Of a DNA stretch of 64,000 nucleotides, positions 40,461 to 62,155 are shown piece after piece (positions within the stretch are counted from its first letter, which is position 1; each line of letters begins with the position of its first letter). The stretch covers positions 644,098 to 708,097 of the forward strand of contig CAVPXV010000006.1 of NCBI GenBank assembly GCA_963709845.1. The letters are read 5' to 3'. The position numbers and the translations under genes were made by a program. Source of the stretch: an uncultured Thermoleophilia bacterium (GTDB taxonomy: Bacteria; Actinomycetota; Thermoleophilia; UBA2241). Under the pieces are notes generated by a model, which ran no database searches, had not been told where the DNA came from, and worked only from the letters and a program-made list of their open reading frames with translations.

Positions 40461-40811
40461 TCAGGCGTCGCGAGGTTCCGGGTACGGGATGGCGACCAGC
40501 ATCGAGGCGGGGGAGTTGGTGCGGTTCTCGATCGCGCGCGACTCGTTGGGGGCAAGGTAGCAGGAGTCCCACTTCTTCAGCGTCACCTCGCCCTCGGGTG
40601 TGATCACCGTGACCTCACCCTCGAGCACGAAGTAGACCTTCTCGACGGGCGTGGCGTCCTCGAAGGCGCCGCCCTTGGGCAGGAAGTGAGAGAGGCCCAT
40701 CCAGAAGTTGCGCGTCTTGCTGACCTCGAAGCCCTGCAGGCGGAGTCCGAAACACTCGTGATGCTTGGGCGCCTCGTACGGGGGGGCCTCGTCGTAGCGG
40801 GTGACTTCCAT
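40461..40811 (-). CDS. Cupin-domain protein (116 aa)
   Basis: ATG at 40811 with GGAAGGAG. Small beta-barrel cupin motifs. The start lies 2 nt after the cyclase stop. Confidence 0.7.
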   Translation of the reverse strand: MEVTRYDEAPPYEAPKHHECFGLRLQGFEVSKTRNFWMGLSHFLPKGGAFEDATPVEKVYFVLEGEVTVITPEGEVTLKKWDSCYLAPNESRAIENRTNSPASMLVAIPYPEPRDA

Positions 40812-40813
40812 GC

Positions 40814-41629: not shown

Positions 41630-41670
41630 AGCTCCTCCAGGGGTCGCGGATGGCCGTGGCGTTGTCCGTA

Positions 41671-41692
41671 ATGCGGAACGGGCTTGCCGTAT
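41671..41692. promoter_or_regulatory. Candidate operator ATGCGG-N10-CCGTAT (recurrent motif, site 1) upstream of the cyclase-cupin-BKACE operon
   Basis: GTAATGCGGAACGGGCTTGCCGTATCG read directly. Shares the ATGCGG/CCGCAT arms with the sites at 49843 and 56647. Confidence 0.3.
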
Positions 41693-41725
41693 CGTGGATA
41701 CGCTACTCGCGCCGCGAAGGCGGTG

Positions 41726-42547
41726 TCAATACTCGCCGGCGTTGCCCGGGACCACCGGTACATCGCCGCTGAGGGCGCGCTGGATATCGTCGCAGACGCG
41801 CACGAGCGCCGCCGCCACGCGCTCCTCGTTGCCTTCGAGGCGGGCGGCGGGCATGACCACCGTGACGGCCGCCAGCGAGCCCGCCGCGTCGCGGATCGCG
41901 GCGCCCACGGCGGAGACGCCGATCGTGTGCTCCTGATGGTCGTAGGCGACGCCGGTGACGCGCACCAGGTCGAGCTCCTTGAGAAGGGCTTCGCGGTTGA
42001 CGTTGGTGTGCGTAGTGAGGGGCCGCAGCTGTCGGGGGATCAGGCGCTCCACCTCGGCGCGCGTCAAGGCCGAGAGCAGCGCCTTGCCGCAGGCCGTGCA
42101 GTACAAGGGGAAGCGGTCACCGACCTCGGCGACGACGCGCAACGAGCGCGACGAGACGAACTGGTTGGTGAACAGAGCTTCGTCGCCGTCCAGGACCACC
42201 AGCTCCACCGTCTCGTGCAGCTCGTGGGAGAGTCGCTCCAGGTAGGGCGACGCCTCGTGGCGAAGGTCGCGGCGGCCGGCCGCGGCGATGCCGATGAGAC
42301 CCGCGCCGATGTGCAGTCTGCCGCTCGGCGAGACACGCATGAAGCCCTCACTCACCAGCGTGCCCACGATGCGGTACGCGGTGGAGCGCGGCAAGCGGAC
42401 GCGGTCGGCGATCTCGATCGCGGTGAGTCCTTCCGGCGCGGCGGAGAGCGCGCGCAGCATCTGCGCCGCGCGTTCCAGCACCTGCACACCGTCGCGCCGC
42501 TCCTTCACGCTCCCCTCCCCCACGGTGGCTTGCGATTGCCGTTCCAT
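41726..42547 (-). CDS. IclR-family transcriptional regulator
   Basis: HTH (LTAIEIADRVRLPRSTAYRIVGTL) plus an IclR effector domain. Confidence 0.85.
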   Translation of the reverse strand: MERQSQATVGEGSVKERRDGVQVLERAAQMLRALSAAPEGLTAIEIADRVRLPRSTAYRIVGTLVSEGFMRVSPSGRLHIGAGLIGIAAAGRRDLRHEASPYLERLSHELHETVELVVLDGDEALFTNQFVSSRSLRVVAEVGDRFPLYCTACGKALLSALTRAEVERLIPRQLRPLTTHTNVNREALLKELDLVRVTGVAYDHQEHTIGVSAVGAAIRDAAGSLAAVTVVMPAARLEGNEERVAAALVRVCDDIQRALSGDVPVVPGNAGEY

Positions 42548-42571
42548 ACACGTACGACGAGCGCCGCGGCG

Positions 42572-43513
42572 CTAGGCGCCGCGCTCCTCGTCGGTGAGTA
42601 CATGCACGAGATAGCGCACGAGACGCGCGCGGGACGCGGCCGCTTCCTCCGCGCTCCAGCTCTGGAAGCCGCGACCCGTCTTGAAGCCGAGATCGCCGGC
42701 CGCGACCCGCTCGCGCAGGAGCGGAGACGGCTCACCCGACGCCTCCAGGTGCGGCAGGATGTAGTCGTGGATCGCCAGCGTGAGGTCGAGGCCCACCATG
42801 TCGGCGTTCTCCATCGGCGCCAGTATGGGCAGCCGCAGACCGGGGCCGAAGCGGATGCTCTCGTCCACCGTGGCGGCGTCGGCGATGCCGTGCTCCACGA
42901 TCGAGATGGCCTCACGCCACAGCGCATGCTGCAGGCGGTTCGCGACGAAGCCCGGGACGTCCTTCTTGCAGTCGATCGGATGCTTGCCCACGCGGCGCAG
43001 GATCGCCATCGTCCGCTGCACGACGTCGTCGGACACCTCGGCCGTCCGCACCACCTCCACCAGGGGGATGAGGTAGGGCGGGTTCCAGAAGTGAGTGCCC
43101 ACGATGCGCCGTTTGTGAATCGCCCTGGAGGCGATCTCGGTGATGCTCATCACCGAGGTGTTCGTGCACAGGATGGTCTCGGGCGGGCAGGCGGCGTCGA
43201 GCTCCTGGAACACGTTCTGCTTGAGCTCGAGGTCCTCGAACACGCACTCGACCACGAACGCGGCCCCCGTCGCGGCGGCGCGCAGGTCGGTGGTGGTGCT
43301 GACGCGCCTCACGGCGGGCTCGATGTCGTCCGCCGTGCCCAGCCCGTTCTCGGCCAGGAAGCTCAGGTTGGCGCGCACGGCGCCGGGGGCGCGCTCCAGC
43401 GCCTCGGGGTACACGTCCTGGAGCGTCACGTCGTGCCCGGCGAGGGCGAACACCTGGGCGATGCCGACGCCCATCATGCCCGCGCCGATGACGGCCACGT
43501 GTTCGTTGGCCAC
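42572..43513 (-). CDS. hbd: 3-hydroxyacyl-CoA / 3-hydroxybutyryl-CoA dehydrogenase
   Basis: GTG at 43513 with GAGGAGG 6 nt upstream. VAVIGAGMMGVGIAQV Rossmann motif and a C-terminal dimerisation domain. Confidence 0.85.
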   Translation of the reverse strand: MANEHVAVIGAGMMGVGIAQVFALAGHDVTLQDVYPEALERAPGAVRANLSFLAENGLGTADDIEPAVRRVSTTTDLRAAATGAAFVVECVFEDLELKQNVFQELDAACPPETILCTNTSVMSITEIASRAIHKRRIVGTHFWNPPYLIPLVEVVRTAEVSDDVVQRTMAILRRVGKHPIDCKKDVPGFVANRLQHALWREAISIVEHGIADAATVDESIRFGPGLRLPILAPMENADMVGLDLTLAIHDYILPHLEASGEPSPLLRERVAAGDLGFKTGRGFQSWSAEEAAASRARLVRYLVHVLTDEERGA

Positions 43514-43539
43514 GGTCAGCCTCCTCGAGGTGAAGCGGC

Positions 43540-44334
43540 TCAGCCGGCGGTGCTGCCGCCGTCGACCATCAGGATGTCGCCGGTCACGAAGTCGGAGGCC
43601 GCCGACGCCAGGTAGACGGTCGCGCCGATGAAGTCCTGCGGATCCGCGGCGCGTCCCCACGGGATGCGCTGCATGAAGACCTTGTAGAGCTCGGGATCGT
43701 CGAGGACCTGCTGCGTGAGAGGCGTCCAGAAGATGCACGGGGCGATGGAGTTCACGTTGATGTGGTACTTGGCCCACTCGGTGGCGAGCTGCTTGGTGAG
43801 CAGGTGAACGGCTCCCTTGGCGGTGCCGTATGCAGAGTAGCCGCCGGGATGGCCCAGCTCGCCGCGCACCGAGCCGACGGTGATGACCTTGCCGCCGCCC
43901 TGGGCGATCATGCGCTTGCCGGCGGCCTGACAGACGATGTAGGTGCCCTTGACCAGCGAGTCCATGACCTTCTGCCACTCGTCGATCGGGAACTCCTCGG
44001 CGGCGAAGCGGTTGGCCTGGCCGGCGGCGCTGACGAGGATGTCGACCTTGCCGAACTCGTCGACGGTCTTCTGGACCATGGCCTCGACGCTGTCCGGGTC
44101 GGTGGCGTCGCAGGAGATCGGCAGCACCCTGGTGCCGGCCTCGGCGATGTCGGCCGCCGCGGCCTCCAGGTTCTCCACCCGGCGGCTGGTGACGACGACG
44201 TCGGCGCCGTAGGCGGCGAGGCCCTTTGCGGCGGCGTGGCCGAACGCGCCGGACCCGCCGGTGACGATGGCCGTCTTGCCGCTCAGGTCGAACAGGCCGC
44301 GCATCTTCTCGAGACTCCAGATCTCACGTTCCAT
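43540..44334 (-). CDS. SDR-family oxidoreductase
   Basis: ATG at 44334 with GAGAGGAG. TGGSGAFG...YSAYGTAKGAV has the YxxxK motif. Confidence 0.8.
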   Translation of the reverse strand: MEREIWSLEKMRGLFDLSGKTAIVTGGSGAFGHAAAKGLAAYGADVVVTSRRVENLEAAAADIAEAGTRVLPISCDATDPDSVEAMVQKTVDEFGKVDILVSAAGQANRFAAEEFPIDEWQKVMDSLVKGTYIVCQAAGKRMIAQGGGKVITVGSVRGELGHPGGYSAYGTAKGAVHLLTKQLATEWAKYHINVNSIAPCIFWTPLTQQVLDDPELYKVFMQRIPWGRAADPQDFIGATVYLASAASDFVTGDILMVDGGSTAG

Positions 44335-44542
44335 CGCACTTCTCCTCTCGCATGGGACCGGCGCCGCTGAAAGCGCCCAGCCCGCCCGGCGCACGTCTCG
44401 GGACCCGACGAGGAGGCGTCAGGCCGGAACGGCGACGGCGAGTCACGACGCACAGAGGCGCTCGTCGTGAGGGCTCTCCGGCCGCCCGGGCGGCTGTCCG
44501 CCCACCCCTCCCGAACCGCCGATCGCACGCCCGATAACCGCG

Positions 44543-44571
44543 ATGCGGAACAGCGGTTCCATCATGCGAAC
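44543..44571. promoter_or_regulatory. Direct repeat ATGCGGAAC...ATGCGAAC with an embedded GGAAC-AGCG-GTTCC palindrome (recurrent motif, site 2) in the 245-bp gap upstream of the SDR/hbd operon
   Basis: Read directly; related half-sites to the other ATGCGG sites. Confidence 0.25.
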
Positions 44572-44640
44572 ACTATTGCAGGTGCCCCGGGGCAGGTCAA
44601 GCATCCTCGAGAGGCCCGCGGCGGCGGCCGTGGAGACCCC

Positions 44641-45402
44641 TCAGACGCGAGCCGTGAGACCGCCGTCGACGTAGAGGATCTGGCCGGTCACGAAGCCGGC
44701 CGCGGGCGACGCGAGGAAGAGCACCGGGCCGACCACGTCGGCGGCCTCCGCCCAACGGCCCATGGGGATGCTGGCGCGCAGGGCGGCCGCGAACGCCTCG
44801 TCGGCAAGGACGGCGCGCGTCAGGTCGGTCTCGACGAACGTCGGCGCGACGGCGTTGACGCGGATGCCGAACTCCGCCCACTGCGCCGCCAGCGAGCGCG
44901 TCATCGAGTCGACCGCACCCTTGCTGGCGGAGTACTCCGTCTGGCCGAACGGCGCGCCGTAGCGGCCGCGCACGGAGGACAGATTGACGATAGCGCCGCC
45001 TCCGCGGCGGGCCATGAGCGCGCCGACCGCCTGACAACAGAGGAACGTGCCGGTGGCGTTGACGTCGAGGATGCGCCGCCACTCCGCCGGCGGCAGGGCC
45101 TCGGCGCGCACACGGACGGTGACACCGGCGGCGTTGACGAGGATGTCCACGCCGCCGAGGCCGGCCTCGGCCTCCTCGGCCATGGCGCGCACGGACGCTT
45201 CGTCGGTGACGTCGACGCCCAAGGCGAGAGCGGCACCGCCGGCGCCCTCCAGCTCGCGGGCCAGCGCCGCCGCGCGCGTCGCGTCGGCGTCCGCCACGGC
45301 GACGGCCGCTCCATGCGCCGCCAGGCCGCGCGCCACGGCAGCTCCCAGACCCCCGGCGCCGACGACGATGGCGCGCCGACCGCCGATGTCGAACTCGTTC
45401 AT
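44641..45402 (-). CDS. SDR-family oxidoreductase
   Basis: GGGAGGA RBS. VVGAGGLG...YSASKGAV SDR motifs. Confidence 0.8.
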   Translation of the reverse strand: MNEFDIGGRRAIVVGAGGLGAAVARGLAAHGAAVAVADADATRAAALARELEGAGGAALALGVDVTDEASVRAMAEEAEAGLGGVDILVNAAGVTVRVRAEALPPAEWRRILDVNATGTFLCCQAVGALMARRGGGAIVNLSSVRGRYGAPFGQTEYSASKGAVDSMTRSLAAQWAEFGIRVNAVAPTFVETDLTRAVLADEAFAAALRASIPMGRWAEAADVVGPVLFLASPAAGFVTGQILYVDGGLTARV

Positions 45403-45452
45403 CGCGTCCTCCCTGCGTCCGTGACCGGCGGCCGCGCGCCGGCCAGGCGACC

Positions 45453-46187
45453 TCAGGGGCCAGTCAGCTCGGCCCGGATCTCGTCCCTCGTCCTCAGCAG
45501 CGCCGCCGTCACGTCCCGCTCGCTCTCGGCGAAGCGGGCGGCCGGCATGGGCACGGCGATCGAGGCGGCGCTCCCGTCCACGTCGGTGACCGCCACGGCG
45601 ACGGCGCAGATCCCCTGCCGCAGCTCCTCGCGCTCGTAGCCGAGGCCGGTGGAGCGCACGTCCTCGAGCTCGCGCAGGAGCTCATCGCGCGTCTTGGCAG
45701 CGCCGTCGCGCGAGGGATCCAGCTTCTGCGGCAGGCGCTTGCGGAGCTCCTCGAGGGTCAGCTGCGCGAGCAGGACCTTGCCGCTCGCCATCCTGTAGGC
45801 GGGGAAGCTCGCGCCGACGCGCGCGATCGCCATGAGCTCGCGCCGCGGGGCGGGGTGCTGCGCCAGGAAGATCACCCTCGAGCCGTCCAGCACCGCCAGG
45901 TCGACGGTCTCGTTGAGATCAAGCGAGAGACGCTCGAGATACGGCTCCAGGACGGCGCCGAGGTCGCGACGGCCGAGGACCGCCAGACGCAGGAGGCCGC
46001 GGCCGAGCTCGCGCCGTCCGGTCTCGCCGTCGACGAACACGTATCCCACTTGTTCCAGGGCGGTGCAGATGCGATGCACGGTGGTCTTCGGCAGGCCGGT
46101 CTGAGCGGCGAGCTGGGCGAGGCTTTGGCCGCCGCGGGACTCCGCGAGGGCGGCGAGGATCGCCGCCGCCCTCGTGATCACCTGCAT
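45453..46187 (-). CDS. IclR-family transcriptional regulator
   Basis: ATG at 46187 with GGAAGGGG. HTH (QSLAQLAAQTGLPKTTVHRICTAL) plus an effector domain. This is the C-terminal part of the spurious 669-aa tracked ORF. Confidence 0.8.
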   Translation of the reverse strand: MQVITRAAAILAALAESRGGQSLAQLAAQTGLPKTTVHRICTALEQVGYVFVDGETGRRELGRGLLRLAVLGRRDLGAVLEPYLERLSLDLNETVDLAVLDGSRVIFLAQHPAPRRELMAIARVGASFPAYRMASGKVLLAQLTLEELRKRLPQKLDPSRDGAAKTRDELLRELEDVRSTGLGYEREELRQGICAVAVAVTDVDGSAASIAVPMPAARFAESERDVTAALLRTRDEIRAELTGP

Positions 46188-46324
46188 CCCGCCCCTTCCG
46201 GCTTCGCCCTCGCCCTCTCGCACCATGTCCGGACCCTCCTCGGCCGCAGCCGGTGAGACCGTTTCGGCGGCGGCGAGCCTCGCGTGGCGGACCGGCGCCC
46301 GCCGCGACCGGCCGCCGGGCGCCG

Positions 46325-47159
46325 CTACGCCTTCTCCAGGACCACCGTTCCGGCGTTGACGCTCGCCTCGGCCGTGACCTTCATCCCGGCCGGCCTGTAC
46401 CCGGGCGCCTCGACCCTGATCGTGTACTCCTTGCCCGGCTCGAGGCGGTCGACGAGCGCCTCCCCGAAGACGTCGCCGGTCGCCGCCCCGACGACCGCTC
46501 CGTCGAGCTCCACGGTGAGCGTGGCGCCGGCACCGCACTCGTCGGTGTCGCCGTAGACGACGCGTGCAGGCGACGAAGACCTTGTCCCAGCGGTGGAGGT
46601 TCCTGTAGTACACGCGGGGCTTGGTGCCGAGGCCGTCGCGGTAGCGCTCGAGGCCCTCGTCGGCGACGCGGCGCGCGAACTCCGCGTCGTCGGCCAGCAC
46701 CAGCTTGATGGCATCGGTCGGGCACACCTGGGAGCAGCGCGTCTCGGTCCAGCCGTCGTCGAGGAGGTGGGCACAGCCCGTGCACTTCTGCGCCAGCTGC
46801 TTCTCCTCGTTCCAGTAGATGGCGCCGTAGGGGCAGCTGGCGACGATCTCGCGACGCCCGGCGGCCTTGACGGGGTCGATGATCACGAGGCCGTCGTCAC
46901 GCCTGTAGACGGCGCCGTCGGCGGTGAGGCACGGCGCCTCGTCGCAGTGCATGCAGGGCATCGGCAGGTAGGCGGTCTGCACGATCGGGTACTGGCCGCG
47001 CTCCTTGCGCTTGATGTTCATCCAGCGGTGGCCGTGCCAGGGCTGGGCCGCCGAGTAGGGCGGGAAGTCGTTGTCGACGAACTCGTCCTTGTCGGCCAGG
47101 AAGCAGTCGTTGCAGTCGTGGCAGCGGGCGACGTCGATGATCAGGTGCCACTTCTTCAT
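46325..47159 (-). CDS. Copy 1 of the iron-sulfur beta subunit (3x[4Fe-4S] ferredoxin plus a C-terminal beta-barrel domain) of a pyrogallol-transhydroxylase-like molybdoenzyme, with one frameshift near 46570
   Basis: ATG at 47159 (GGGAGGG) overlapping the alpha-1 stop (ATGA). MKKWHLIIDVARCHDCNDC...CMHCDEAPC...CTGCAHLLDDGWTETRC. C-terminal VVYGDTDECGAGATLTVELDG...TVVLEKA is in a second frame (ORF 46325..46774). Paralog of 59343..60170. Confidence 0.75.
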
Positions 47160-49766
47160 TTGGCCTCGCCCTCCCATTTCTCGACCTGGACCAGACAGGA
47201 GTTGTTGGACATCGCCGTCGAGGTCGGGGTGATGAACCGCTTGTTGGTGAGGATGTTGACGCAGCCGGCGATGTCGGCGGACTCGCCCGGCTCGCCGACC
47301 GGCAGGTAGTCGGCGCAGCGACTCGTAGGAGTGCACCGTGCCGGGGGCCACGCGCTCGGTGAGCTGCGCCGACAGGATGACGGCGCCGCGGTCGTTGAAG
47401 GCGCGGATGAGGTCGCCTTCGGCGATGCCCCGCGCCTCCGCGTCCTTGCTGTTCAGCCGCATGACCCAGTACTAGTGCCCGTCGTCGTGCAGGATGCGGT
47501 GGTCCTTGACCTCGTTGAGCCAGCTCCCTTTGGAGTCGCCCATGGTGTGGAAGCTGAAGCGCGGGTGCGGGCTCACCATCTGCAGCGGGTACCTGTCGTA
47601 GAGATCCGTGGTGTGGTGGCCCTCCCAGCGACGGGATGTACTGCGGGCCCATCGCCGGGCGCTCGGGGTCGACCACGTCGAGCTCGAGGTGCTTGAGCGC
47701 CGTGCTCACGAACTCGATCTTGCCCGACGCCGTCTGCAGACCCTTGAGGCCGACGGTGTCGCCCGGGCGCCGGGCCCCAGTCCGGCGTGTCGCGCTTGCG
47801 GCCCTCGGCGAACCAGCGCATGGCCGGCGTGCTCTTGTGGTCCTCGGGGAAGGGCACGACGAAGTAGCCCTTCTTCTCGAACTCCTCCCAGGTGATGTGC
47901 TTGGGCAGGTCGGTGGCGGCGAAGTAGAGCTTGCACCAGTCGAGCTCGGTGCGGCCGCCGTCGGTGTAGAGGTGGCCGATGCCCATGCGGTCGGCAGACG
48001 GCCGCGAAGATGTCGTAGTCCGACTTGCTCTCGCCGAGCGGCTCGATGCACTTCTTCTGGAAGACGATGACCCGCTGGTTCATCTGGTGGTAGTTGTCGG
48101 GGATGTAGCCCGAGCAGTTGCCGAACTCGCTCATGTCCCAGCGCTCGAAGTTGGTGCAGGCCGGCAGGATGACGTCGGCGAACTTGGCCTCGCCCTCCAT
48201 CCAGATCGACTGGTTGACGACGAAGCTGACCTTGCCCTCCTGGTAGGCCTTCACGTAGCGGTTCGTCTGCTGCATGGTGCCGAAGAACGAACCGCCGTAG
48301 CGCCAGTACATCTCGATGAAGGGATAGCCCGGCGCCGGATACTGGTACTTCTGCATCTGGCTCTCGATCGACGAGCCGCAGAAGCCTTTGCCGCGCCACT
48401 CGAAGCGCTCGTGCATCATCGCCTCAGGGATGCGGAGGCGCGGGATCGCCTGACCCTCGGTGGAGTCGTGCGGGTTCACCGTGATGTGGCGACCCCGACC
48501 CGTGGGGGAACATGCGGTAGGTCCAGCGGTAGGCGGCCGCCGACTTCTCGGGATCGCCGGAGATGCCGCCCTCGGCGTAGCCGGGGAAGATGAAGGACTC
48601 GTCCGCCGGCGCGCCCTGTGAGGTGCCCCAGATGTTGCTGCCCGGCTTGCCGTAGCCCTGCATCGCCGCGAGCGCGATCATCGTGCGGGCCCACTCGTTG
48701 CCCGTGGCCGAGCGGCAGGCGCCGCCCCAGCCGCCGAGGCCGCCGGCGGCGAGCATGGTCTTCTTGGCGCCCCACTCGCGGGCCAGGGCGCGGATCTCGC
48801 CGGGCCGGGACGCCGGACTCGCGCTCCGCCCACTCCGGCGTCTTGGGCACGTTGTCGGTCTTGCCGAGGACGTAGTCCTTCCACTCGTCGAAGCCGTTGG
48901 TCCGCGCCGCGACGTACTCCTTGTCGTACAGGTCCTCGGCCAGCCACGTGTGGGCGATGGCGAGCCCGAAGGCGACGTCGGTGCCGAGCCGCGGCGCGAA
49001 CCACTTGTCGGAGAAGAGCTCGGCCGTGTGGTTGAAGTACGGGTCGACGAACACCATCTTGATGCCGAGCTCTTTCATCCAGTAGCGGCGGCAGGTGCTC
49101 TCGAAGGCCGAGTAGATGCCGCCGCCCGTCGTCTCGGGGTCGGCCGACCAGAACACGATCATCTCGGTGTGCTTGAGCGCGTCCTCCAGCAGGTCCCACT
49201 GCTCGGGGATGCCGAGGCGGTGGCTGTTGCCCCACATGGGGATGCCGCCCCAGTGCCAGCCCTCCCAGCTGTCGGGGTTGTGGGCGCAGTGGCTGAAGCC
49301 CATGAGGTTGAGGAAGCGGTTGTAGGCGCTGTGGCGGTAGCCGATGTTGCCCCACAGATGGTGGGAGCTCTCGGTCGTCATGATGCTGCCGGGCCCGACC
49401 TCGCGATGGCAGCGCTCCACCTCGTCGGCGATGATGTCGAGGGCCGCCTCCCAGCTGATGGGCTCGTAGCCGGAGACGCCGCGGTTGCGGATGTTGCGGG
49501 CGCCCTTGTGGTCGAAGTCGACGCGCTTGAGCGGCGTGAGAATGCGCTTCGGGCGAGTAGACCAACGAGCGCTGGGCCTGTGCGTGCGGCGAAAGCGTCG
49601 TGCGGCGCGGCGGCGTGAACTTGCGGCCCCGCGCCTCGATGACCCAGTCGCCCTTGTCGCCTTCGTCGAGGTCGATGGGGATCATGCGCACGATCTTGCC
49701 GTCCTCGACGTCGACGAACAATGGGCCGCCGGTCGTACAGTTCGTGAGCCTCTCCATGTGACCCAT
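47156..49766 (-). pseudogene. Copy 1 of the large (molybdopterin) subunit of a pyrogallol-phloroglucinol transhydroxylase-like DMSO-reductase-family enzyme, split over at least 7 frames by single-base frameshifts
   Basis: ATG at 49766 with GGAGG-N9, as for copy 2. Segments appear in order across ORFs 48678..49997, 48476..49420, 48424..48756, 47706..48479, 47573..47986, 46897..48399 and 45453..47462. From memory these match the Pelobacter transhydroxylase alpha subunit blocks (TTGGPLFV.V.DGKI, HHLWGNIGYRHS, NPDSWEGWHWGG, AAGGLGGWGGACR, FPGYAEGGISGD, ILPACTNFERWD, CIEP.GES.SDY). Confidence 0.75.
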
Positions 49767-49842
49767 ACTCTCTACCTCCGCTCGCAGCTCGAGGATGGCG
49801 GCCGCGCACGCGATGCGCGCGGGTCTCCCGGTGGTATCCACG

Positions 49843-49863
49843 ATGCGGACGACATGCCCGCAT
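49843..49863. promoter_or_regulatory. Candidate operator ATGCGG-N9-CCGCAT (recurrent motif, site 3) in the divergent alpha-1 / mobAB intergenic region
   Basis: CACGATGCGGACGACATGCCCGCATTTCG read directly. Confidence 0.3.
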
Positions 49864-49969
49864 TTCGGGAATCCTACCGTGGAGGGCGTGGGTGTCAACT
49901 CGCCGACGCCGTTGTCGGCGCCGTCCCCGGCGGCGCGCGGGGCGGCGCTTGGGCTACACTGCCGGAGCC

Positions 49970-51076
49970 GTGTCAAGTGACCAGCCCACAAGCCCACGCC
50001 GCGTCCGCGTCGGCGTCCTGCTCGCCGGCGGGGAGGCGAGGCGCATGGGGCGCGACAAGCGCCTCTTGCGTCTCGCCGGCGCCACGCTGCTCGAGCGCAA
50101 CCTCGCCTTCCTCCGCGACCTGTTCCCGACGGTCGCGCTGTCGCTGCGCGACGCCGACCAGGTCCCCGCCTCGCTGCCGGCCGGCGTCGAGGTCGTGCCC
50201 GACGTGGTGACCGGCTCGCCGCTGGCGGGCCTGGCCTCGGTCCTGGCCCGCTACCAGGAGCCCATCTTCGCGCTCGCCGCAGATCTGGCCTTCAGCGAGC
50301 GCGGCGCGGTCGAGCAGGTGCTGGACGCCTTCCGCGACGTCGACGTCGCGCTGCCGATCGTCGGCGACCACCTCGAGCCGTTGCATGCGGTGTACGGCCC
50401 GGCTTGCGCGGCGCGCATCGAGGAGTTGCTGGAACGGGGCGCGCACAGCATCCTCGACCTGCTCCCCGAGGTGCGCGTGAGGACGGTACGCTTCCCGAGC
50501 GCGGCGCCATTCTTCAACGTGAACACGCCGGACGACTGGCGCGAGGCGCGCCGCCGCGAGCAGGCAGCGGCGCGCGGCGGCCGCCCGGCGGTGCTCGGCG
50601 TCGTCGGCCACCCGGACAGCGGCAAGACGACGCTGATCGAGCGCCTGATCCCCGAGCTCGTCCGTCTCGGCCTCAAGGTCGCGACGGTCAAGAGCGTCGC
50701 GCGCTTCGACATCGACACCCCGGGCAAGGACTCCTGGCGCCACGGCCAGGCCGGAGCGGAGGCGTACGCGGTGGCGTCCGCGAGCAAGCTCGCGTTCGTC
50801 ACCAGCCTGCGCGCCGAGATGGCGCTGGTGCAGCTCGTGGAGCGCTACTTCTCCGAGTACGATATCGTCCTCTGCGAGGGCTACCGGCGCGAGGCGCCGC
50901 ATGTCGTCGAGGTCTTCCGCGCCGCGAGCGAGCATGCGGAGACGCAGGTGCCGCGAGGCGAGCTGCTCGCCCTCGTGACCGATACCGACCTGCCGCACCG
51001 GCACCGCTTCGCGCTCGACGACGCCGCCGGCCTCGCCGCCTTCCTCATCGGCGAACTCGGGCTCGCCCGCGCCTAG
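49970..51076 (+). CDS. mobA: Fused MobA-MobB (molybdenum cofactor guanylyltransferase plus MGD biosynthesis adapter GTPase-like protein)
   Basis: GTG at 49970; the start is uncertain. N-terminal GVLLAGGEARRMG MobA fold. C-terminal VVGHPDSGKTTLIERL P-loop MobB domain highly similar to the stand-alone MobB at 55884. Confidence 0.8.
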   Translation: MSSDQPTSPRRVRVGVLLAGGEARRMGRDKRLLRLAGATLLERNLAFLRDLFPTVALSLRDADQVPASLPAGVEVVPDVVTGSPLAGLASVLARYQEPIFALAADLAFSERGAVEQVLDAFRDVDVALPIVGDHLEPLHAVYGPACAARIEELLERGAHSILDLLPEVRVRTVRFPSAAPFFNVNTPDDWREARRREQAAARGGRPAVLGVVGHPDSGKTTLIERLIPELVRLGLKVATVKSVARFDIDTPGKDSWRHGQAGAEAYAVASASKLAFVTSLRAEMALVQLVERYFSEYDIVLCEGYRREAPHVVEVFRAASEHAETQVPRGELLALVTDTDLPHRHRFALDDAAGLAAFLIGELGLARA

Positions 51077-51227
51077 CGGCAGCACGCACGGCCGGCCGGC
51101 CCCGGCCCGGCGCGCCCCGGGCGTTGACCCGCCGGCCGGCTCTCGCACTATCATGGAAGCAGACCAGAGCACGGGCCGCGTCGCGCCCCGTGACGATCGA
51201 CACCCACGCGAGAGGAGCGCCGAGCCC

Positions 51228-52384
51228 ATGTCCGGAGGAGACCAGAAGCCCGTCACGTCATCGAGTCCCGTGCCCGCGGCGCAGCCCGACCCCGCCGATC
51301 CCGGCGTCTACAGGGGACCGCTGCACCAGACCGCCGCGACGACCGCCACCGACTACTGGAACGACTCCTGCTCCGTCGAGGAGCTGACCTACGCCATCGC
51401 GCGCGGTGCCGTCGGCGCCACCACCAACCCGACGATCGTCGGCGACGTGCTGAAGAAGGAGATGCACCTCTGGCGCGAGCGCATCGCGGCAGATCATCGC
51501 CGAGAACCCGGCCTGGACCGAGGACGAGGTCACCTGGCGCCTCATCGAGGAGATGGCGATACGCGGCGCCGAACTGCTGCTCCCGGTCTTCGCGCGCGAA
51601 GGCGGCATGAAGGGGCGCCTCTCGATCCAGACCGACCCGCGCTTCTACCGCGACGCCGCGCGCATCGCCGCGCAGGCCGTGCGCTTCAGCAGCCTCGCCG
51701 CGAACATGCAGGTCAAGATCCCCGCGACCGGCGCCGGCGTGCAGGCGATCGAGGAGGCGACGGCGGCCGGCGTCAACGATCAACGCCACCGTGTGCTTCA
51801 CCGTGCCGCAGGCGCTCGCCGTGGCCGAGGCGGTGGAGCGTGGGCTGCGGCGCCGCGAGGCGGCCGGCGAGGACGTCGCCGCGATGACGCCGGTGTGCAC
51901 GCTCATGGTCGGCCGCCTCGACGACTGGATGCAGGCGCTGGTCAAGCGCGACGGCGTGGTCGCGACCCCGGGCATCGAGCACTGGGCCGGCGTCGCCTGC
52001 ATGAAGAAGGCCTACGGCATCTTGCGCGAGCGTGGCTACCGCACGCGCCTGCTGGCCGCGGCCTACCGCCACCACCTGCACTGGACCGAGTTCATCGGCG
52101 GCGACGTCGTGCTCACCATCCCCTACGCCTGGCAGCGCCTCTTCAACGAGTCCGACCTCGCGGTCGTGCCGCGCATGGACGAGCCGGTGCCGGCGGCGGT
52201 CGTCGACGAGCTCTACCGCCGCTTCCCCGACTTCCGGCGCGCCTACGACGCGGACGGGATGAGCCCTGAGGAGTTCGACGCCTACGGCGCCACGGCGCGC
52301 ACGCTGCGCGGCTTCATCGCCTCCTACCACGACCTCGTGGCCGTGGTCCGTGACTTCATGCTGCCGAATCCAGACGTAAAGTAG
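51228..52384 (+). CDS. tal: Transaldolase-family protein with two +1 frameshifts (about 51488 and 51779)
   Basis: ATG at 51228. GATTNPTIVGD...WRERI in frame 0. QIIAENPAW...GRLSIQTDPRFY...VKIPATGAGVQAIEE in frame +1. INATVCFTVPQALAVAEAVE...MVGRLDDW in frame +2. Removing a single G at each site gives a continuous protein. Confidence 0.75.
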
Positions 52385-52649
52385 CGTCCCGCGCGGACGG
52401 CCGCGCCGACGCCAGATCCATCATCCATCAGTCGCTCAGCGCGCGCGGCGGCCGGCCGCGTCCCGGCCGCCGCGCGGATTGACGGCTGTGCTACCCTTGC
52501 GCTGTCCGACTCCAAGCCCTCCGCCCTAAGGCGATAGCTACGGGCGCTGGGCCGTACCATGGATAGACCATGGGGCAGCGCGCGAGCGCTGTCGTGGGCC
52601 CGCGGCGGAAACGCCCGGACCTCCCCGTGCTTGGAAAGGAGCAAGGGAC

Positions 52650-53474
52650 ATGAACGCAGGTCCGACCCTGCGCGCTGACGGCGCGCACCCCAAGAAGCCC
52701 AGCCTGCGGCTTGCCGTCGCTCTCGCGCTGCTGCTCGCCGCGCTGGCGATAGTCCTGGCCGCGGGCTGTGGCGGCCAGTCGAGCGGCAGCTCGGGCACCT
52801 CGACCAAGATCACCGTCTTCGGCGCCGCCTCGCTGACCGACGCCTTCACCAAGCTGGGGAGCGACTATACGGCCGCTCATCCGGGCGTGACGGTGGCCTT
52901 CAACTTCGCCGGCAGCCAGGACCTCGTGGCCCAGCTCCAGCAGGGCGCGCCAGCCGACGTGCTGGCCACGGCCGACACCAAGACCATGGACCAGGTCGCG
53001 ACCCTGGTCGGCACGCCGCAGGTCTTCGCGCGCAACAAGCTCGAGATCGCCGTCCCGCCCGGCAACCCGAAGGACATCAAGAGCTTGAAGGATCTTGCCG
53101 ACCCCGGTCTCAAGGTGGTCCTCGCGGCCCCGCAGGTACCGGCCGGGAAGTACGCGCAGGAGATCCTCGGCAAGGCCGGCGTCACCGTGAATCCGGTCTC
53201 GCTCGAGGACAGCGTCAAGGGAGTGGTCACCAAGGTCTCGCTGGGCGAGGCCGACGCCGGCATCGTCTACGTCACCGATATCCAGGCGGCCGGCGGCAAG
53301 CTCGAAGGCGTCGTCATCCCGGACACGCTGAACGTCATCGCCACCTACCCGATCGCCGTCGTGAAGGCGAGCAAGAACGCCCAGGACGCGCAGGCGTTCG
53401 TGGACCTGGTCATGTCCAGCCAGGGCCAGCAGGTGCTGCGCAGCTTCGGCTTCCTGCCGCCGAGCGCGCCATGA
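52650..53474 (+). CDS. modA: Molybdate ABC transporter substrate-binding lipoprotein
   Basis: Signal peptide plus LAAGCGG lipobox. ModA fold motifs (ITVFGAASLTDAF, VLATAD, GIVYVTD). Confidence 0.85.
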   Translation: MNAGPTLRADGAHPKKPSLRLAVALALLLAALAIVLAAGCGGQSSGSSGTSTKITVFGAASLTDAFTKLGSDYTAAHPGVTVAFNFAGSQDLVAQLQQGAPADVLATADTKTMDQVATLVGTPQVFARNKLEIAVPPGNPKDIKSLKDLADPGLKVVLAAPQVPAGKYAQEILGKAGVTVNPVSLEDSVKGVVTKVSLGEADAGIVYVTDIQAAGGKLEGVVIPDTLNVIATYPIAVVKASKNAQDAQAFVDLVMSSQGQQVLRSFGFLPPSAP

Positions 53475-53791
53475 CGCCACACGTCGCTGCGAGCGCCCTT
53501 GACGTGCGCCCGGCAGAGGCTGACCAGTCCGCGGCCGCAAGGCGCGACGGCGTCCAGGCCAGCGAGCGCGCGACCGCGGTGCTCCGTTGCGTCTCGGCGG
53601 AGACGCACGGCCTCACAGTGGTGGAGATCGCGCGCAGCCTCGGCTTGCCGCGTTCCACAACGCACCGCATCGTCGAGGCGCTACGCAGCGAGGGCTTCGT
53701 GCGTAGGGACGCGGCGCGTGGTCATCGGGCAGACCCTTTCGGGACTCGTCTGCATCCGCCGCTCCGCCGAAGAGGGCGAGCCGGTCTGTGA
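53471..53791 (+). pseudogene. Possible remnant of an IclR-family regulator (HTH domain only) in the 525-bp modA-modB spacer
   Basis: ERATAVLRCVSAETHGLTVVEIARSLGLPRSTTHRIVEALRSEGFVRRD aligns with the HTH segments of the three intact IclR genes in this window. No effector domain follows in any frame. Confidence 0.3.
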
Positions 53792-53998
53792 CGTGCGGTC
53801 GCGAACAATCGCGACTTCCGTCCGCTCGCGTGGGCGCCAGGCGGCCGATCCGGTGACCGACCAGGTGACTCCGGGGCCCCCGCCGCGAGGCGGCGGCGCG
53901 GGCAAAGGCCTATCGGTCGTCGCCGGCGACTCCCTCACGAGCGGCCGGGCCGAGGCCACGCCCTGGGCGAGCCCGGCTGAAGACGGCGCGCCGCGACT

Positions 53999-54791
53999 CA
54001 TGCGTCGCGGCAGCGGCGGTGCGCCGTTCGGCTTTGTGCCGCTCGCCGTGGTCGCGTTCGCGTTCCTGACGCTTCCGCTCATCGCCCTCCTCGTCCGTGC
54101 CCCGTGGCGCGACCTGCCCGGCGACCTGACGGCGCCCGGCGTTCTCACCGCCCTGCGTCTCTCGCTCGTGTGCTCGCTGGGAGCGCTCGCTCTCTCGTTG
54201 GTCTTCGGCGTCCCGCTCGCCTGGCTGCTCGCGCGCGTGCCGTTTCGCGGCCGCAACATCGTGCGCGCTCTGGTGCTCCTGCCCATGGTCCTGCCGCCCG
54301 TCGTCGGCGGCGTCGCACTGCTCCTCGCCTTCGGCCGCCACGGCCTCGCCGGGCAGTGGCTCGACAGGGTCTTCGGCGTCACGCTGCCGTTCTCGACCGC
54401 TGGGGCCATGCTCGCCGAGACGTTCGTCGCGATGCCGTTCCTCGTCATCACCGTCGAGGCTGGCATCCGCAGCATGGACCGGCGCTACGAGGACGCCGCC
54501 GCGACGCTTGGCGCCGGCCGCTGGCGCACGTTCCGCCGCGTGACGCTGCCGCTGATCGCACCCGCCCTCGCCGCCGGCGGCGCCCTCTGCTGGGCGCGGG
54601 CCCTCGGAGAGTTCGGTGCGACGATCACCTTCGCCGGCAACCTGCCGGGAACCACGCAGACGATGCCGCTGGCGGTGTACCTCGCCCTGCAGAACAACGC
54701 CGACGCGGCGATCACCCTCAGCCTCGTGATGCTGGCGATCTCGCTGGCGGTCCTGGTGGCGCTGCGCGGCCGCTGGTTCCCTTCGCGATGA
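53999..54791 (+). CDS. modB: Molybdate ABC transporter permease
   Basis: ATG at 53999, inside tracked ORF 53499..54791 whose first 165 codons are non-coding. EAA-loop region ARALGEFGATITFAGN and 5-6 TM segments. Confidence 0.85.
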
Positions 54792-54828
54792 GCGCCCGCG
54801 CGACGAGGCCGGCAGGGGGAGCCCCCCT

Positions 54829-55887
54829 GTGAGCCTCGAGGCGACCATCGGCCTGCGCAAGGGCGCCCTCGACCTTGACGTCGAGCTCGAGGTGTCGAGC
54901 AACGGCGTCGTCGTGCTGCTTGGCCCGAACGCCGCCGGCAAGACGACGCTGCTCCGGGCGCTCGCCGGCCTCGTGCCGCTCGAGCGCGGCCGCGTCGTCC
55001 TCGACGGCGTCGTGCTCGACGACCCGGCGGGCGGCGTGCGCGTCCCCACCGAACGGCGGCCGATCGGCGTCGTCTTCCAGGACTACCTCCTCTTCCCGCA
55101 CCTGTCGGTGCTCGACAACGTGGCCTTCGGGCCTCGGTCGCGCGGCGCCGGGCGCGCCGCCGCGCGGGAGCGCGCCCTCGCGTTGCTCGACCGCGTGGGG
55201 CTGGCCGACTGCGCCGCCGAGAGGCCGCGGGCTCTCTCCGGCGGCCAGGCGCAGCGCGTGGCCCTGGCGCGGGCGCTGGCCACCGACCCTCGCCTCCTGC
55301 TCCTCGACGAGCCGCTCGCGGCCATGGACGCCGGCGCGCGCGCCGAGCTGCGCCGCGGCCTCGGCCGGCACCTCGCCGCGTTTTCCGGGACCTGCCTCGT
55401 GATCACGCACGACCCGATCGAGGCGATGACGCTCGGCGACCAGCTCGTCGTCCTGGAAGCCGGGCGCATCGTGCAGTCCGGGACTCCAAGCGAGCTCTCC
55501 TCGCACCCGCGCTCGCGCTACGTGGCCGACCTTCTCGGCCTGAACCTCTACCGCGGCCGCCCCGAGCAGCGCTCCATCGTGCTCCCGAGCGGCCGGCGCC
55601 TGATCGCCGCCGATCCCGTGCCACAGGGAGGCGAAGTGTTCGCCGTCATCCCTCCGCGGGCGGTCTCCTTGCACCGCACCATGCCTGAAGGCTCGCCGAG
55701 AAACGTCTGGGAGGGAACGGTCGGCGAGCTCGATGTTGCGGGAGATCACGTGCGCGTGCACGTGGGCGGCGACCTGCCGGTCATCGCCGAGGTCACGCCG
55801 GCGGCAGTGGCCGCCCTGCACCTGGGAGAAGGCGGGCCCGTCTTCGTCTCGGTCAAGGCGCTGGAGGTCGAGGTCTACCCCGCATGA
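54829..55887 (+). CDS. modC: Molybdate ABC transporter ATP-binding protein with a C-terminal TOBE domain
   Basis: GTG start. Walker A GPNAAGKTT, LSGGQAQR and Walker B LLLLDEP. C-terminal Mop/TOBE-like 110 aa. Confidence 0.85.
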   Translation: MSLEATIGLRKGALDLDVELEVSSNGVVVLLGPNAAGKTTLLRALAGLVPLERGRVVLDGVVLDDPAGGVRVPTERRPIGVVFQDYLLFPHLSVLDNVAFGPRSRGAGRAAARERALALLDRVGLADCAAERPRALSGGQAQRVALARALATDPRLLLLDEPLAAMDAGARAELRRGLGRHLAAFSGTCLVITHDPIEAMTLGDQLVVLEAGRIVQSGTPSELSSHPRSRYVADLLGLNLYRGRPEQRSIVLPSGRRLIAADPVPQGGEVFAVIPPRAVSLHRTMPEGSPRNVWEGTVGELDVAGDHVRVHVGGDLPVIAEVTPAAVAALHLGEGGPVFVSVKALEVEVYPA

Positions 55888-56516
55888 ACCCTGCGTGGGG
55901 CGCCGGCATTGGGTTTCCCGGCGGGGCACACTCCCGTACCATCTTCGCCATGGACGCCATCGAGCACGCTCGCGGAGGGGCCGACGAGGGGCCGGCCGAG
56001 GCCGGGCCGGCAAGACAGCCGGCCCTCGTGGCCGTCGTCGGCAAGAGCGATTCGGGCAAGACGACTCTGATCGAGAAGGTCGTGCCCGAGCTGGTGAAGC
56101 TCGGCCTGCGCGTCGGGACGGTCAAGCACGACGCGCACAGCTTCGAGATCGACCACCCGGGCAAGGACTCCTGGCGGCACGGCCAAGCCGGCGCCCACGC
56201 CTACGCCATCGCCTCGCCCCAGCGCCTCGCCTTCATCACGCGGCTGGACGGCGAGCTGCCGCTGGTCGACATCGCACGGCGGTTCTTCGCCGGCTTCGAC
56301 CTGGTGGTGGCGGAGGGCTACAAGCGCACGGCACCGCACCGCGTCGAGCTCTTCCGCAGCGGCGCCGGCCACGCCGAGCCCCTCTGCGGCCCCGGCGAGG
56401 CGATCGCGCTCGTCACCGACGCGCCGCTCGCGCACGAGCACCGCTTCGGGCTCGAGGACGCCGCCGGCCTGGCGAGCTTCCTCGCCCTCCGCCTGGACTC
56501 GCTGCGCCAGTACTAG
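55884..56516 (+). CDS. mobB: Stand-alone MobB (MGD biosynthesis adapter protein)
   Basis: The ATG overlaps the modC stop (ATGA). VVGKSDSGKTTLIEKV P-loop. Paralog of the MobB half of 49970..51076. Confidence 0.8.
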   Translation: MNPAWGAGIGFPGGAHSRTIFAMDAIEHARGGADEGPAEAGPARQPALVAVVGKSDSGKTTLIEKVVPELVKLGLRVGTVKHDAHSFEIDHPGKDSWRHGQAGAHAYAIASPQRLAFITRLDGELPLVDIARRFFAGFDLVVAEGYKRTAPHRVELFRSGAGHAEPLCGPGEAIALVTDAPLAHEHRFGLEDAAGLASFLALRLDSLRQY

Positions 56517-56610
56517 CGCGGCCGGGCCCCGTCTGGTCCTGTCTCAGGTCCCCCGCCCCGGCGGATCCCCGCCGCCGCAACGGCCGCGCGCGACTCGCCC
56601 AGCCCTACAC

Positions 56611-56639
56611 TTGACACTACCCGGCGAGGGATGGAGTAT
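56611..56639 (+). promoter_or_regulatory. Candidate promoter for the intact molybdoenzyme operon: -35 TTGACA, 17-nt spacer, -10 GAGTAT
   Basis: Hexamers read directly, about 105 nt upstream of the alpha-2 ATG and immediately followed by the palindromic site at 56647. Confidence 0.3.
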
Positions 56640-56646
56640 GCCCGTA

Positions 56647-56668
56647 ATGCGGTTCAGGTAATCCGCAT
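56647..56668. promoter_or_regulatory. Candidate operator ATGCGG-N10-CCGCAT (recurrent motif, site 4) just downstream of the candidate promoter for alpha-2
   Basis: GTAATGCGGTTCAGGTAATCCGCATCG read directly; perfect 6-bp arms plus GTAAT direct repeats. Confidence 0.35.
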
Positions 56669-56745
56669 CGCGGACAGTACCCCGTGAGCCGCGCTCTGCT
56701 CGAGCCGCGGCCGCCCCAGCCGAGCCAGATGCGGAGGTCAGCAGT

Positions 56746-62146: not shown

Positions 62147-62155
62147 GGAGGAGCC

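Follow-up and report, generated by a model that had tools for sequence, protein, structure and literature searches.

Tandem IclR-type boxes as probable operators of a phloroglucinol/pyrogallol catabolic island in an uncultured Thermoleophilia bacterium

Introduction

Which regulator reads a short palindrome that recurs in front of one operon after another, and what do those operons have in common? The question is raised by a 64,000-nucleotide stretch of DNA, referred to here as the window, from an uncultured Thermoleophilia bacterium (GenBank assembly GCA_963709845.1, contig CAVPXV010000006.1, positions 644,098 to 708,097), in which the motif ATGCGG-N9/10-CCGCAT had been noticed upstream of four operons. 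The original prediction, made from the sequence alone, described the motif as a palindrome with 6-bp arms and fixed spacing, and proposed that one regulator, plausibly an IclR protein, joins BKACE and hbd genes to molybdoenzyme operons in a single regulon. The analysis reported here indicates that the motif is very probably the operator of an uncharacterized IclR-family repressor system controlling an island for pyrogallol and phloroglucinol catabolism, and that it belongs to a pair of adjacent 17-bp boxes.

Phloroglucinol is the funnel intermediate in the anaerobic breakdown of flavonoids and tannins. The enzymes of its degradation were identified in 2023, and the pathway has been linked to carbon preservation in peat soils (PMC10470551). 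The same study mentions an uncharacterized transcriptional regulator in phloroglucinol gene clusters; the regulator family and the operator are not described there (PMC10470551).

The recurrent palindrome is the inner part of paired 17-bp boxes

Motif counts in the 64-kb window were compared to those in dinucleotide-preserving shuffles. Exact copies of ATGCGG-N9/10-CCGCAT were found twice, at 49843-49863 (N9) and at 56647-56668 (N10), compared to 0.02 expected, and the N10 form with up to one mismatch was found three times (0.32 expected). The sharing of the motif by four sites, as first claimed, thus held for these two copies and, with a single mismatch (arm CCGTAT), for site 1 (41671-41692); at site 2 (44543-44571), which had been described as a direct repeat, the second arm is CCATCA and does not fit the palindrome. 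Nor was the spacing fixed, being N9 at one site and N10 at the others. At all four sites the stated gene context agreed with Pfam assignments, and the TTGACA-N17-GAGTAT promoter reported at site 4 is present in the sequence. The ATGCGG hexamer on its own was not enriched in the window (48 occurrences versus 51 expected), and ATGCGG-N9/N10-CCGCAT with two mismatches occurred there at chance level. For these two reasons the model with 6-bp arms was dropped.

With every site written in the orientation of its downstream gene, conservation ran outward from each ATGCGG or CCGCAT arm, with an invariant piece, TCCGCAT, followed by NRYGG. The true unit is a 17-bp quasi-palindrome with the 11-bp core CCRYAWNRYGG, in which CC..A....GG is invariant; its consensus in the window, from a symmetric position weight matrix (PWM) of 10 boxes, is TGTCCGCAATGCGGACA. 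Two such boxes make up every site, their centers being 21, 21, 20, 21, 21, and 20 bp apart in the promoter regions designated P1 to P6. The motif first noticed consists of the inner halves of two neighboring boxes, and because these belong to pairs with centers either 20 or 21 bp apart, a gap of N9 separates the arms at one site and a gap of N10 separates them elsewhere. An arrangement like that of PcaU, with two inverted elements and one direct element, was also considered and was dropped when the extension to 17-mers gave two complete palindromes.

The redefined unit stood out clearly from the background. CCGCATNRYGG was found 8 times compared to 1.41 times expected, a count exceeded in none of 100 shuffles, and 7 of the 8 matches were in promoter regions; a degenerate two-box pattern gave 10 matches versus 0.11 expected. 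The symmetric PWM from the 10 boxes of P1 to P5 was tested by leaving out one promoter at a time. Left-out pairs scored 26 to 35 bits, each ranking right behind the training pairs, whereas the best pair in each of 200 shuffled windows averaged 12.1 bits (95th percentile, 16.9; maximum, 24.6). The initial 39 kb of the window contains no box pair. Pairs were essentially confined to promoter regions, so that the proposed motif did not turn out to be a feature of coding sequence, and in place of four sites there are five pairs and probably six, the additions being at 39317-39354 and, probably, 60300-60336.

The box pairs overlie the predicted transcription starts

Four of the pairs correspond to the sites first noticed. 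P1 (41663-41729, minus strand; site 1) precedes the cyclase-cupin-BKACE operon and had the highest leave-one-out score (35.0). Its -35 element, TTGACA (41724-41729), overlaps the stop codon of the IclR gene R1 and is followed by the -10 element TAGCGT (41700-41705), the proximal box TATCCACGATACGGCAA (41684-41700), and the distal box GTTCCGCATTACGGACA (41663-41679), with centers 21 bp apart. P2 (44535-44600, minus strand; site 2; score, 27.9) lies upstream of genes for a short-chain dehydrogenase/reductase (SDR_A), a 3-hydroxyacyl-coenzyme A (CoA)-dehydrogenase-like protein, and R1, and consists of TTGACC (44595-44600), AATAGT (44572-44577), a proximal box TGTTCGCATGATGGAAC (44556-44572), and a distal box GTTCCGCATCGCGGTTA (44535-44551), again 21 bp apart. 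P3 (49835-49898, minus strand; site 3; score, 31.8) is divergent from mobA-mobB and precedes genes for the molybdoenzyme subunits alpha-1 and beta-1, the IclR protein R2, and a second SDR (SDR_B); here TTGACA (49893-49898) and TAGGAT (49871-49876) are followed by TTCCCGAAATGCGGGCA (49855-49871) and CGTCCGCATCGTGGATA (49835-49851), with centers 20 bp apart. In P4 (56611-56676, plus strand; site 4; score, 31.1), upstream of the alpha-2 and beta-2 genes, TTGACA (56611-56616) and GAGTAT (56634-56639) are followed by TGCCCGTAATGCGGTTC (56639-56655) and AATCCGCATCGCGGACA (56660-56676), with centers 21 bp apart.

The fifth pair, in P5 (39317-39381, minus strand; score, 26.1), is new and lies upstream of an operon for an ATP-binding cassette (ABC) transporter that includes a solute-binding protein with a twin-arginine translocation (TAT) signal. 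Its -35 TTGACA (39376-39381) and -10 TATGAT (39354-39359) precede the proximal box TGCCCGTATCGTGGGAA (39338-39354) and the distal box CGTCCGCATGGTGGATG (39317-39333), with centers 21 bp apart, and the promoter matched 11 of 12 consensus positions in an independent scan. The probable sixth site, P6 (60264-60336, plus strand), precedes the transketolase N and C genes and a creatininase-family gene. It has TTGCAT (60264-60269) and TATGAT (60286-60291) as promoter hexamers and the boxes GTTCCACTGTTCGGACG (60300-60316) and GTTCCGTATAATGGAAC (60320-60336), with centers 20 bp apart. This pair was found by a PWM that had not been trained on it, and its score of 19.4 lies above the 95th percentile of the shuffled windows and below their maximum. 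It is intergenic, between a strong hairpin 3' of the beta-2 gene and the transketolase genes, and begins 9 nt past the -10 element. The hairpin (60213-60244), gagagggccgggcc-ttgc-ggcccggccctctc, is GC rich, follows the beta-2 stop codon without a T-run, and probably terminates the P4 operon ahead of P6.

The pairs of P1 to P5 follow promoters resembling TTGAC(A/C)-N16-18-TAnnnT, with the proximal 17-mer starting on the final base of the -10 element and a distance of 50 to 53 nt from the -35 element to the distal box in all five. A consensus promoter scan of positions 39000 to 50200 returned exactly three sigma-70-like sites (0.5 expected), and all three abut pairs (P5, P3, and P2). If transcription starts at the usual 6 to 8 nt past the -10 element, the operator would cover approximately -7 to +31. 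This is the position expected of a repressor rather than of an activator, and in each of P1 to P5 the pair overlaps the core promoter or the predicted start.

The boxes resemble IclR group 1 operators, and three IclR genes lie within the operons

In a comparison of 1,340 IclR-family regulators by Suvorova and Gelfand in 2021, the group 1 consensus was given as GKTYCRY-W3-4-RYGRAMC, with TGTYCRY-W3-RYGRACA for subgroup (i) (PMC8222616). The window consensus given above is a literal instance of the subgroup (i) sequence. Tandem palindromes with centers 18 to 22 nt apart (mostly 19 to 21) were reported for 94 of 181 IclR orthologous groups and attributed to binding of a tetramer on one face of the DNA (PMC8222616); the centers are 20 or 21 bp apart in P1 to P6 and in all related loci described below. 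Among 67 boxes, columns 4 and 5 were CC and columns 13 and 14 were GG in 60 to 64.

Three IclR genes, each with the Pfam domains HTH_IclR and IclR_C, are located inside the P2, P3, and P5 operons. R1 (41726-42547, minus strand; 273 amino acids; recognition helix PRSTAYRIV) is the last gene of the P2 operon, R2 (45453-46229, minus strand, with the start at 46229 or 46190; helix PKTTVHRIC) lies inside the P3 operon, and R3 (33234-34013, minus strand; 259 amino acids; helix PRTTVHRIR) lies near the end of the P5 operon. The three helices belong to one class. None of the proteins reached the cutoff of any NCBIfam IclR equivalog; the best models, BhcR and PcaR/PcaU/PobR, gave less than half of the required score. 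For PcaR/PcaU/PobR (TIGR02431), R1, R2, and R3 scored 126.8, 114.3, and 112.7 bits, respectively, compared to a cutoff of 284.75, and thus are not members.

R1 is the prime candidate for the regulator, since its orthologs adjoin the cyclase-cupin-SDR core genes in many phyla; R2 and R3 may bind the same boxes in response to different effectors. Because each IclR gene is within an operon that it could regulate, negative autoregulation is implied. The original proposal of one IclR regulator therefore survives in part: the boxes are most probably IclR operators, and the presence of three paralogs of the same class does not fix the number of regulators at one. Box pairs at P1, P2, P3, and P4 support the proposed joining of the BKACE/hbd and molybdoenzyme operons in one regulon.

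The pairs are conserved and co-occur with one class of IclR recognition helix

A scan of a genome collection with the cyclase protein as the query yielded 80 loci, designated with the letter L. The closest were in metagenome-assembled genomes (MAGs) of Thermoleophilia/Actinomycetota (91 to 96% identity to the query), and the isolate names of some of these point to permafrost and palsa sites. Loci L001 to L006 each contained two to four high-scoring pairs, with centers almost all 21 bp apart, upstream of orthologous operons: those for the core SDR and IclR, the cyclase, the transporter, and the alpha-1-like and alpha-2-like proteins. Conservation upstream of orthologous operons, which had been named in advance as a test of the regulon, was thus found. 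The P1 promoter and boxes are also present in L001 and L002; P2 is conserved in L001 to L006, and P5 is conserved in L001 and L003 to L006. Pairs orthologous to that of P3 are found upstream of the alpha-1-like gene in L004 to L006, and at position 1721 of L006 a pair matching P4 lies upstream of an alpha-2 ortholog (93% identical). L001 also has an R3 ortholog at the same relative position. In the alignments of the transporter promoters (A1) and of the core promoters (A2), the -35 element, the -10 element, and the two boxes were invariant, while spacers and flanks varied, and the outer half-sites were as conserved in the relatives as the inner ones.

Similar pairs adjoin cyclase-cupin-SDR genes in a Chloroflexia MAG (L022), an alphaproteobacterium (L049), Cupriavidus basilensis (L046), Acidobacteria (L068, L074, and L075), and a member of the Ktedonobacterales (L012), in all of which they overlap or closely follow a -10 element. 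L022 has two pairs in the intergenic region between divergent IclR and cyclase genes.

Co-occurrence of the boxes with the regulator was evaluated across the 80 loci, with a pair considered significant at an E value of <0.01 against locus-specific backgrounds. A pair was present in 12 of the 23 loci with an IclR helix of the form [RK][ST]T[VAS][HYQ]RI versus 2 of the 57 without one (odds ratio, 30; Fisher P = 1.5e-6). Loci in which the IclR helix is HKATASRIL had no CCRYAWNRYGG pairs; in at least two of them, an alternative tandem box, TCTCAYAATATGAGA, follows a TTGACA promoter (L028, 6783-6819; L066, upstream of the IclR gene at about 100-270). In such loci, control of the same pathway seems to lie with another IclR clade that has a separate operator. 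The co-occurrence of pairs and helix class, together with the different box in the HKATASRIL loci, ties the boxes to one IclR clade.

Four isolated boxes were also detected in the window (centers 39422, 42369, 35775, and 63937). None is conserved in the relatives, and they may be chance occurrences. The box at 39414-39430, CGTCCGCATGGCGGACG (13.3 bits), is a perfect palindrome with a perfect 7-bp stem; it lies directly after the BKACE stop codon, approximately 76 bp upstream of the center of the P5 proximal box, and has no counterpart in L001. It could be an auxiliary operator acting by looping or a terminator-like hairpin. A partnerless box within the R1 coding region (42361-42377; TGCCCACGATGCGGTAC, 13.7 bits) is not conserved in the R1 genes of L001 to L006, and the other two (63929-63945 and 35767-35783) are both in coding sequence.

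Proposed mode of repression and alternative explanations

The arrangement of the boxes suggests the following mode of action. One IclR dimer would occupy each 17-bp box. The boxes have centers 20 to 21 bp apart, or two helical turns, and the two dimers would form a tetramer lying on a single face of the DNA between about -7 and +31. Such a tetramer would cover the transcription start and so block open-complex formation or promoter escape, until the repressor is released by a pathway metabolite, likely phloroglucinol, pyrogallol, or an early intermediate, that binds to its C-terminal IclR domain. R1, R2, and R3 would each be negatively autoregulated, and the regulon would comprise the operons of P1 to P5 and probably that of P6.

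The alternative that survives best, although it is improbable, is that the boxes are operators for a regulator of another family that is encoded elsewhere, with the neighboring IclR genes acting on something else. Only 64 kb of the genome is in view, and the identity of the binding protein is inferred. However, both the consensus and the tandem spacing are those cataloged for the IclR family, and the pairs co-occur across phyla with a specific IclR clade, including in the divergent IclR-cyclase region of L022, whereas loci with a different IclR clade lack these boxes and have a different tandem box.

Less likely still is the anatomy first proposed, a single inverted repeat with arms ATGCGG and CCGCAT separated by N9-10 and bound by one regulator dimer. 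The two exact matches and the one with a single mismatch, all at promoters, agree with such a repeat, but the second arm of site 2 and the variation between N9 and N10 do not. Moreover, conservation extends outward to full 17-bp palindromes (TCCGC-ATN-GCGGA) that match IclR group 1, the outer half-sites in the relatives being conserved like the inner ones, and a helix-turn-helix dimer does not normally span half-sites with centers 15 to 16 bp apart and arms in this orientation. The two-box model accounts for all six sites.

There is even less reason to assign the boxes a role in RNA, as hairpins in the 5' untranslated region that affect stability or attenuation, or as terminator-like structures. 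Being downstream of the -10 elements, the boxes would be transcribed, each is quasi-palindromic, and the copy at 39414-39430 forms a perfect stem after a stop codon. Yet across 67 distinct boxes the two arms were complementary at 255 positions, compared to 257 ± 8.7 when right arms were permuted, and many boxes carry two to four arm mismatches. This lack of covariation between arms argues for selection on the base identity of each half-site, as for a protein dimer, rather than on pairing. Base identity (CC...GG) and the 20- to 21-bp phasing of the boxes are the conserved features, presence of a pair goes closely with a single class of IclR recognition helix, and a terminator scan was negative at the box sites.

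Least likely of all is chance similarity, or recent duplication of promoter modules with no selected binding function: ATGCGG is not enriched and the relaxed ATGCGG-N-CCGCAT pattern is at chance level, but the pair scores are far beyond those of shuffles, across six genomes the orthologous promoters have kept the boxes amid diverged flanks, four other phyla have related pairs, and the promoters are not copies of each other, since neither the spacers between -35 and -10 elements nor those between boxes share similarity.

Several points nevertheless weigh against control by an IclR repressor through these pairs, or against parts of that interpretation. Repression, tetramer binding, and the effector are all deduced from sequence, and with three paralogous IclR proteins the data cannot tell which one binds. 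With weaker -10 or -35 hexamers, P1, P4, and P6 fell short in the stringent promoter scan; these hexamers were read by eye and by alignment of orthologs, in which they are nevertheless conserved. P6 differs in geometry and has a borderline score, and it is graded as a probable sixth site; L073 has no intergenic region equivalent to P6, and the loci of the close relatives end short of the transketolase genes. Scores in the distant phyla are modest (E = 0.003 to 0.07 for several loci). The statistics, and the regulon as described here, cover the 64-kb window.

Finally, box variants are conserved per promoter across genomes, the proximal box having CCCGTA in the alpha and transporter promoters and TCCAC or TTCGC in the core promoters. 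Such promoter-specific variants could signify more than one regulator or mere tuning of affinity, and they might reflect a division of labor among R1, R2, and R3. In L003 to L006, however, these variants are kept although an R1-like gene is the sole IclR gene within about 20 kb, so that separate regulators for the two promoter classes are no more than a possibility.

The putatively controlled operons encode candidate enzymes of phloroglucinol and pyrogallol catabolism

Four phloroglucinol-pathway families are co-located at 39443-45402: SDR (PF13561/PF00106), cyclase (PF04199), 3HCDH (PF02737 and PF00725), and BKACE (PF05853). In the anaerobic degradation of phloroglucinol by Clostridium scatologenes, the SDR is PGR, the cyclase is DPGC, the 3HCDH-like protein is TfD, and the BKACE is TAL, and a molybdenum-dependent pyrogallol-phloroglucinol transhydroxylase has been placed upstream of the pathway (PMC10470551). 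The closest solved homolog of the island cyclase is isatin hydrolase, which is likewise the closest for CsDPGC (PMC10470551). On the basis of family content and context, the island genes are assigned, at the family level, to phloroglucinol/pyrogallol catabolism, a pathway not named in the original prediction. More specific assignments did not come from homology searches: homologs of the cyclase were named just "kynurenine formamidase" or "cyclase family," with the two SDRs as queries, the top PDB matches were gluconate dehydrogenases and FabG and included no phloroglucinol reductase, and NCBIfam had no equivalog for the pathway enzymes, with the BKACE scoring under all equivalog cutoffs.

The P1 operon (39443-41629, minus strand) comprises, according to Pfam, genes for a cyclase-family protein (40814-41629), a cupin (about 40461-40850), and a BKACE (39443-40555). 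The cyclase is a candidate dihydrophloroglucinol cyclohydrolase, and the BKACE is a candidate triacetate acetoacetate-lyase. Inspection of 20 loci among L001 to L075, spread over six phyla, showed the cyclase-cupin-SDR triad, with its small cupin, in every one; the word "cupin" is absent from the paper that defined the pathway (PMC10470551). In the P2 operon (enzyme genes at 42572-44394, minus strand; Pfam and NCBIfam), SDR_A (43540-44394) is a candidate for the phloroglucinol reductase, and the 3HCDH-family dehydrogenase (42572 to about 43560) is one for the 3-hydroxy-5-oxohexanoate dehydrogenase.

The P3 and P4 operons each encode a predicted transhydroxylase-like molybdoenzyme. In the P3 operon (minus strand; Pfam), the alpha-1/beta-1 genes are accompanied by those for R2 and SDR_B. 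The first gene, alpha-1 (47159-49766, minus strand), encodes a transhydroxylase-like large subunit that was pieced together from Pfam fragments and from tblastn with the L006 ortholog; it is divided into at least eight frame segments, which are 74 to 92% identical to that ortholog. The genes for the ABC ATPase and permease (34193-36900, minus strand) and for transaldolase (51553-52384, plus strand) are also fragmented, and those for alpha-2, the cyclase, the SDRs, and the IclR proteins are intact. Fragmentation of the alpha-1, ABC, and transaldolase genes reflects either local pseudogenization or indel errors in the assembly. One stop-free frame (45453-47462, minus strand) takes in the C-terminal Molydop_binding domain of alpha-1, the beta-1 Fer4_11 domain, and all of R2, so that within it no stop codon closes beta-1; either a frameshift or a fusion could account for this.

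The P4 operon (56746-60170, plus strand) encodes alpha-2 (56746-59343), a bis-molybdopterin guanine dinucleotide (bis-MGD) enzyme similar to pyrogallol hydroxytransferase, and beta-2 (to 60170). Alpha-2 has the Pfam domains AhtL-like_1st (PF21423), Molybdopterin (PF00384), and Molydop_binding (PF01568), and its best solved match is the large subunit of the Pelobacter pyrogallol hydroxytransferase (4v4c_A; E = 1.5e-139, compared to 3.6e-71 for dimethyl sulfoxide reductase). Beta-2 has a Fer4_11 domain and a CarboxypepD_reg-like domain, and a Fer4_11 domain is also found downstream of alpha-1. An AhtL-like large subunit closest to the solved enzyme, with a small Fe-S subunit alongside, is what would be expected of a pyrogallol-phloroglucinol transhydroxylase of the Pelobacter acidigallici type. 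Alpha-1 and alpha-2 are only 33% identical and therefore probably act on different substrates.

Between P3 and P4, on the strand divergent from P3, are a mobA-mobB fusion, transaldolase fragments, modABC, and a second mobB (49892-56516, plus strand). Supply of the molybdenum cofactor thus seems to be built into the island. The P3 pair lies in an intergenic region shared with the mobA-mobB side, as it also does in L005 and L006, and P3 may therefore also control the mob and mod genes.

The P5 operon encodes the ABC importer with its TAT-signal solute-binding protein, R3, and, at its end, a flavin mononucleotide (FMN) reductase. The P6 operon encodes transketolase N and C and a creatininase-family protein; these genes, the split transketolase and the creatininase-family gene, and a further open reading frame follow the alpha-2/beta-2 operon at 60330-64000 (plus strand). 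The same transketolase-creatininase trio adjoins the cluster in L073 (2222-5122), and its role in the published pathway is not obvious. A gene for a V4R-GGDEF protein (30604-31779, minus strand) borders the island on its outer side and has no box nearby. Small hydrocarbon-like molecules are probable ligands of V4R domains.

Relationship to known systems

The closest match to the arrangement described here is the set of tandem operators of IclR group 1, which are alike in consensus, in the 20- to 21-bp spacing, and in having regulator genes next to or inside the regulated operons (PMC8222616). The main text of that catalog holds no regulon that combines the phloroglucinol pathway with transhydroxylase-like molybdoenzymes, as the island does, and the host of the island, unlike those of the catalog, belongs to an uncultured Thermoleophilia lineage. 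Furthermore, IclR regulators generally control their own gene and one or two adjacent operons (PMC8222616), whereas the island has five to six operons and three paralogous regulators.

Where it is cited in PMC8222616 (as Lu et al. 2010), TtgV of Pseudomonas putida is a tetrameric repressor that binds its operator cooperatively, and in this respect it resembles the mode proposed here. The likeness is in that proposed mode; the window operator differs in consisting of two clear palindromes downstream of the -10 element. The operator of TtgV reportedly extends over about 40 bp and overlaps the promoter, and TtgV is said to be released by small aromatic effectors.

PcaU, PobR, and PcaR are IclR regulators of aromatic catabolism by the β-ketoadipate pathway, and their motif, GTNCG-N5-6-CGNAC, is of the same type as the window boxes. 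PcaU and PobR recognize three boxes, a palindrome and one direct half-site, whereas the window has four half-sites that form two full palindromes over the predicted start. PcaU and PobR reportedly act mainly as activators from upstream positions. Although TIGR02431 was among the best NCBIfam matches of R1, R2, and R3, all three are far below its cutoff.

The C. scatologenes cluster (PMC10470551; Zhou et al. 2023) has four protein families in common with the island, a likeness at the family level. Beyond these, the island has the conserved cupin, the ABC importer, two transhydroxylase-like enzymes, genes for molybdenum cofactor and molybdate, and transketolase genes.

Implications

The new element is one of membership: an uncultured soil lineage has yielded a defined operator, along with a candidate clade of repressors, for an ecologically relevant pathway that came to light only recently. 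In the literature searched, no IclR or other characterized repressor was linked to phloroglucinol catabolism. The arrangement is the textbook one for IclR regulators, and the system therefore adds a member rather than a principle. The supplement of the IclR catalog lists PF04199, COG1878, and COG3246 among the families regulated by unnamed IclR groups (PMC8222616), and parts of the regulon may thus already have been predicted anonymously.

The operator and repressor clade would delimit the regulon, consisting of the pathway enzymes, two molybdoenzymes, an importer, and possibly the cupin and transketolase genes, and definition of the operator would supply testable candidates among genes of unknown role. 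Operator and repressor would also be parts for phloroglucinol or pyrogallol biosensors.

A broader interpretation can be offered tentatively, as somewhat less probable than even: the boxes may define an unnamed, phylum-spanning clade of IclR repressors (helix [RK][ST]T[VA][HYQ]RI) that serve as dedicated trihydroxybenzene sensors in Actinomycetota, Chloroflexota, Acidobacteriota, and Proteobacteria, and that have been triplicated here into effector-specialized paralogs sharing one operator code. If this were true, the three paralogs would bring together pyrogallol-type, phloroglucinol-type, and transport signals in the control of six operons, the operator and repressor would be a ready-made pair for polyphenol biosensors, and, in peat and permafrost, the boxes would serve as a regulatory marker of the anaerobic turnover of polyphenols.

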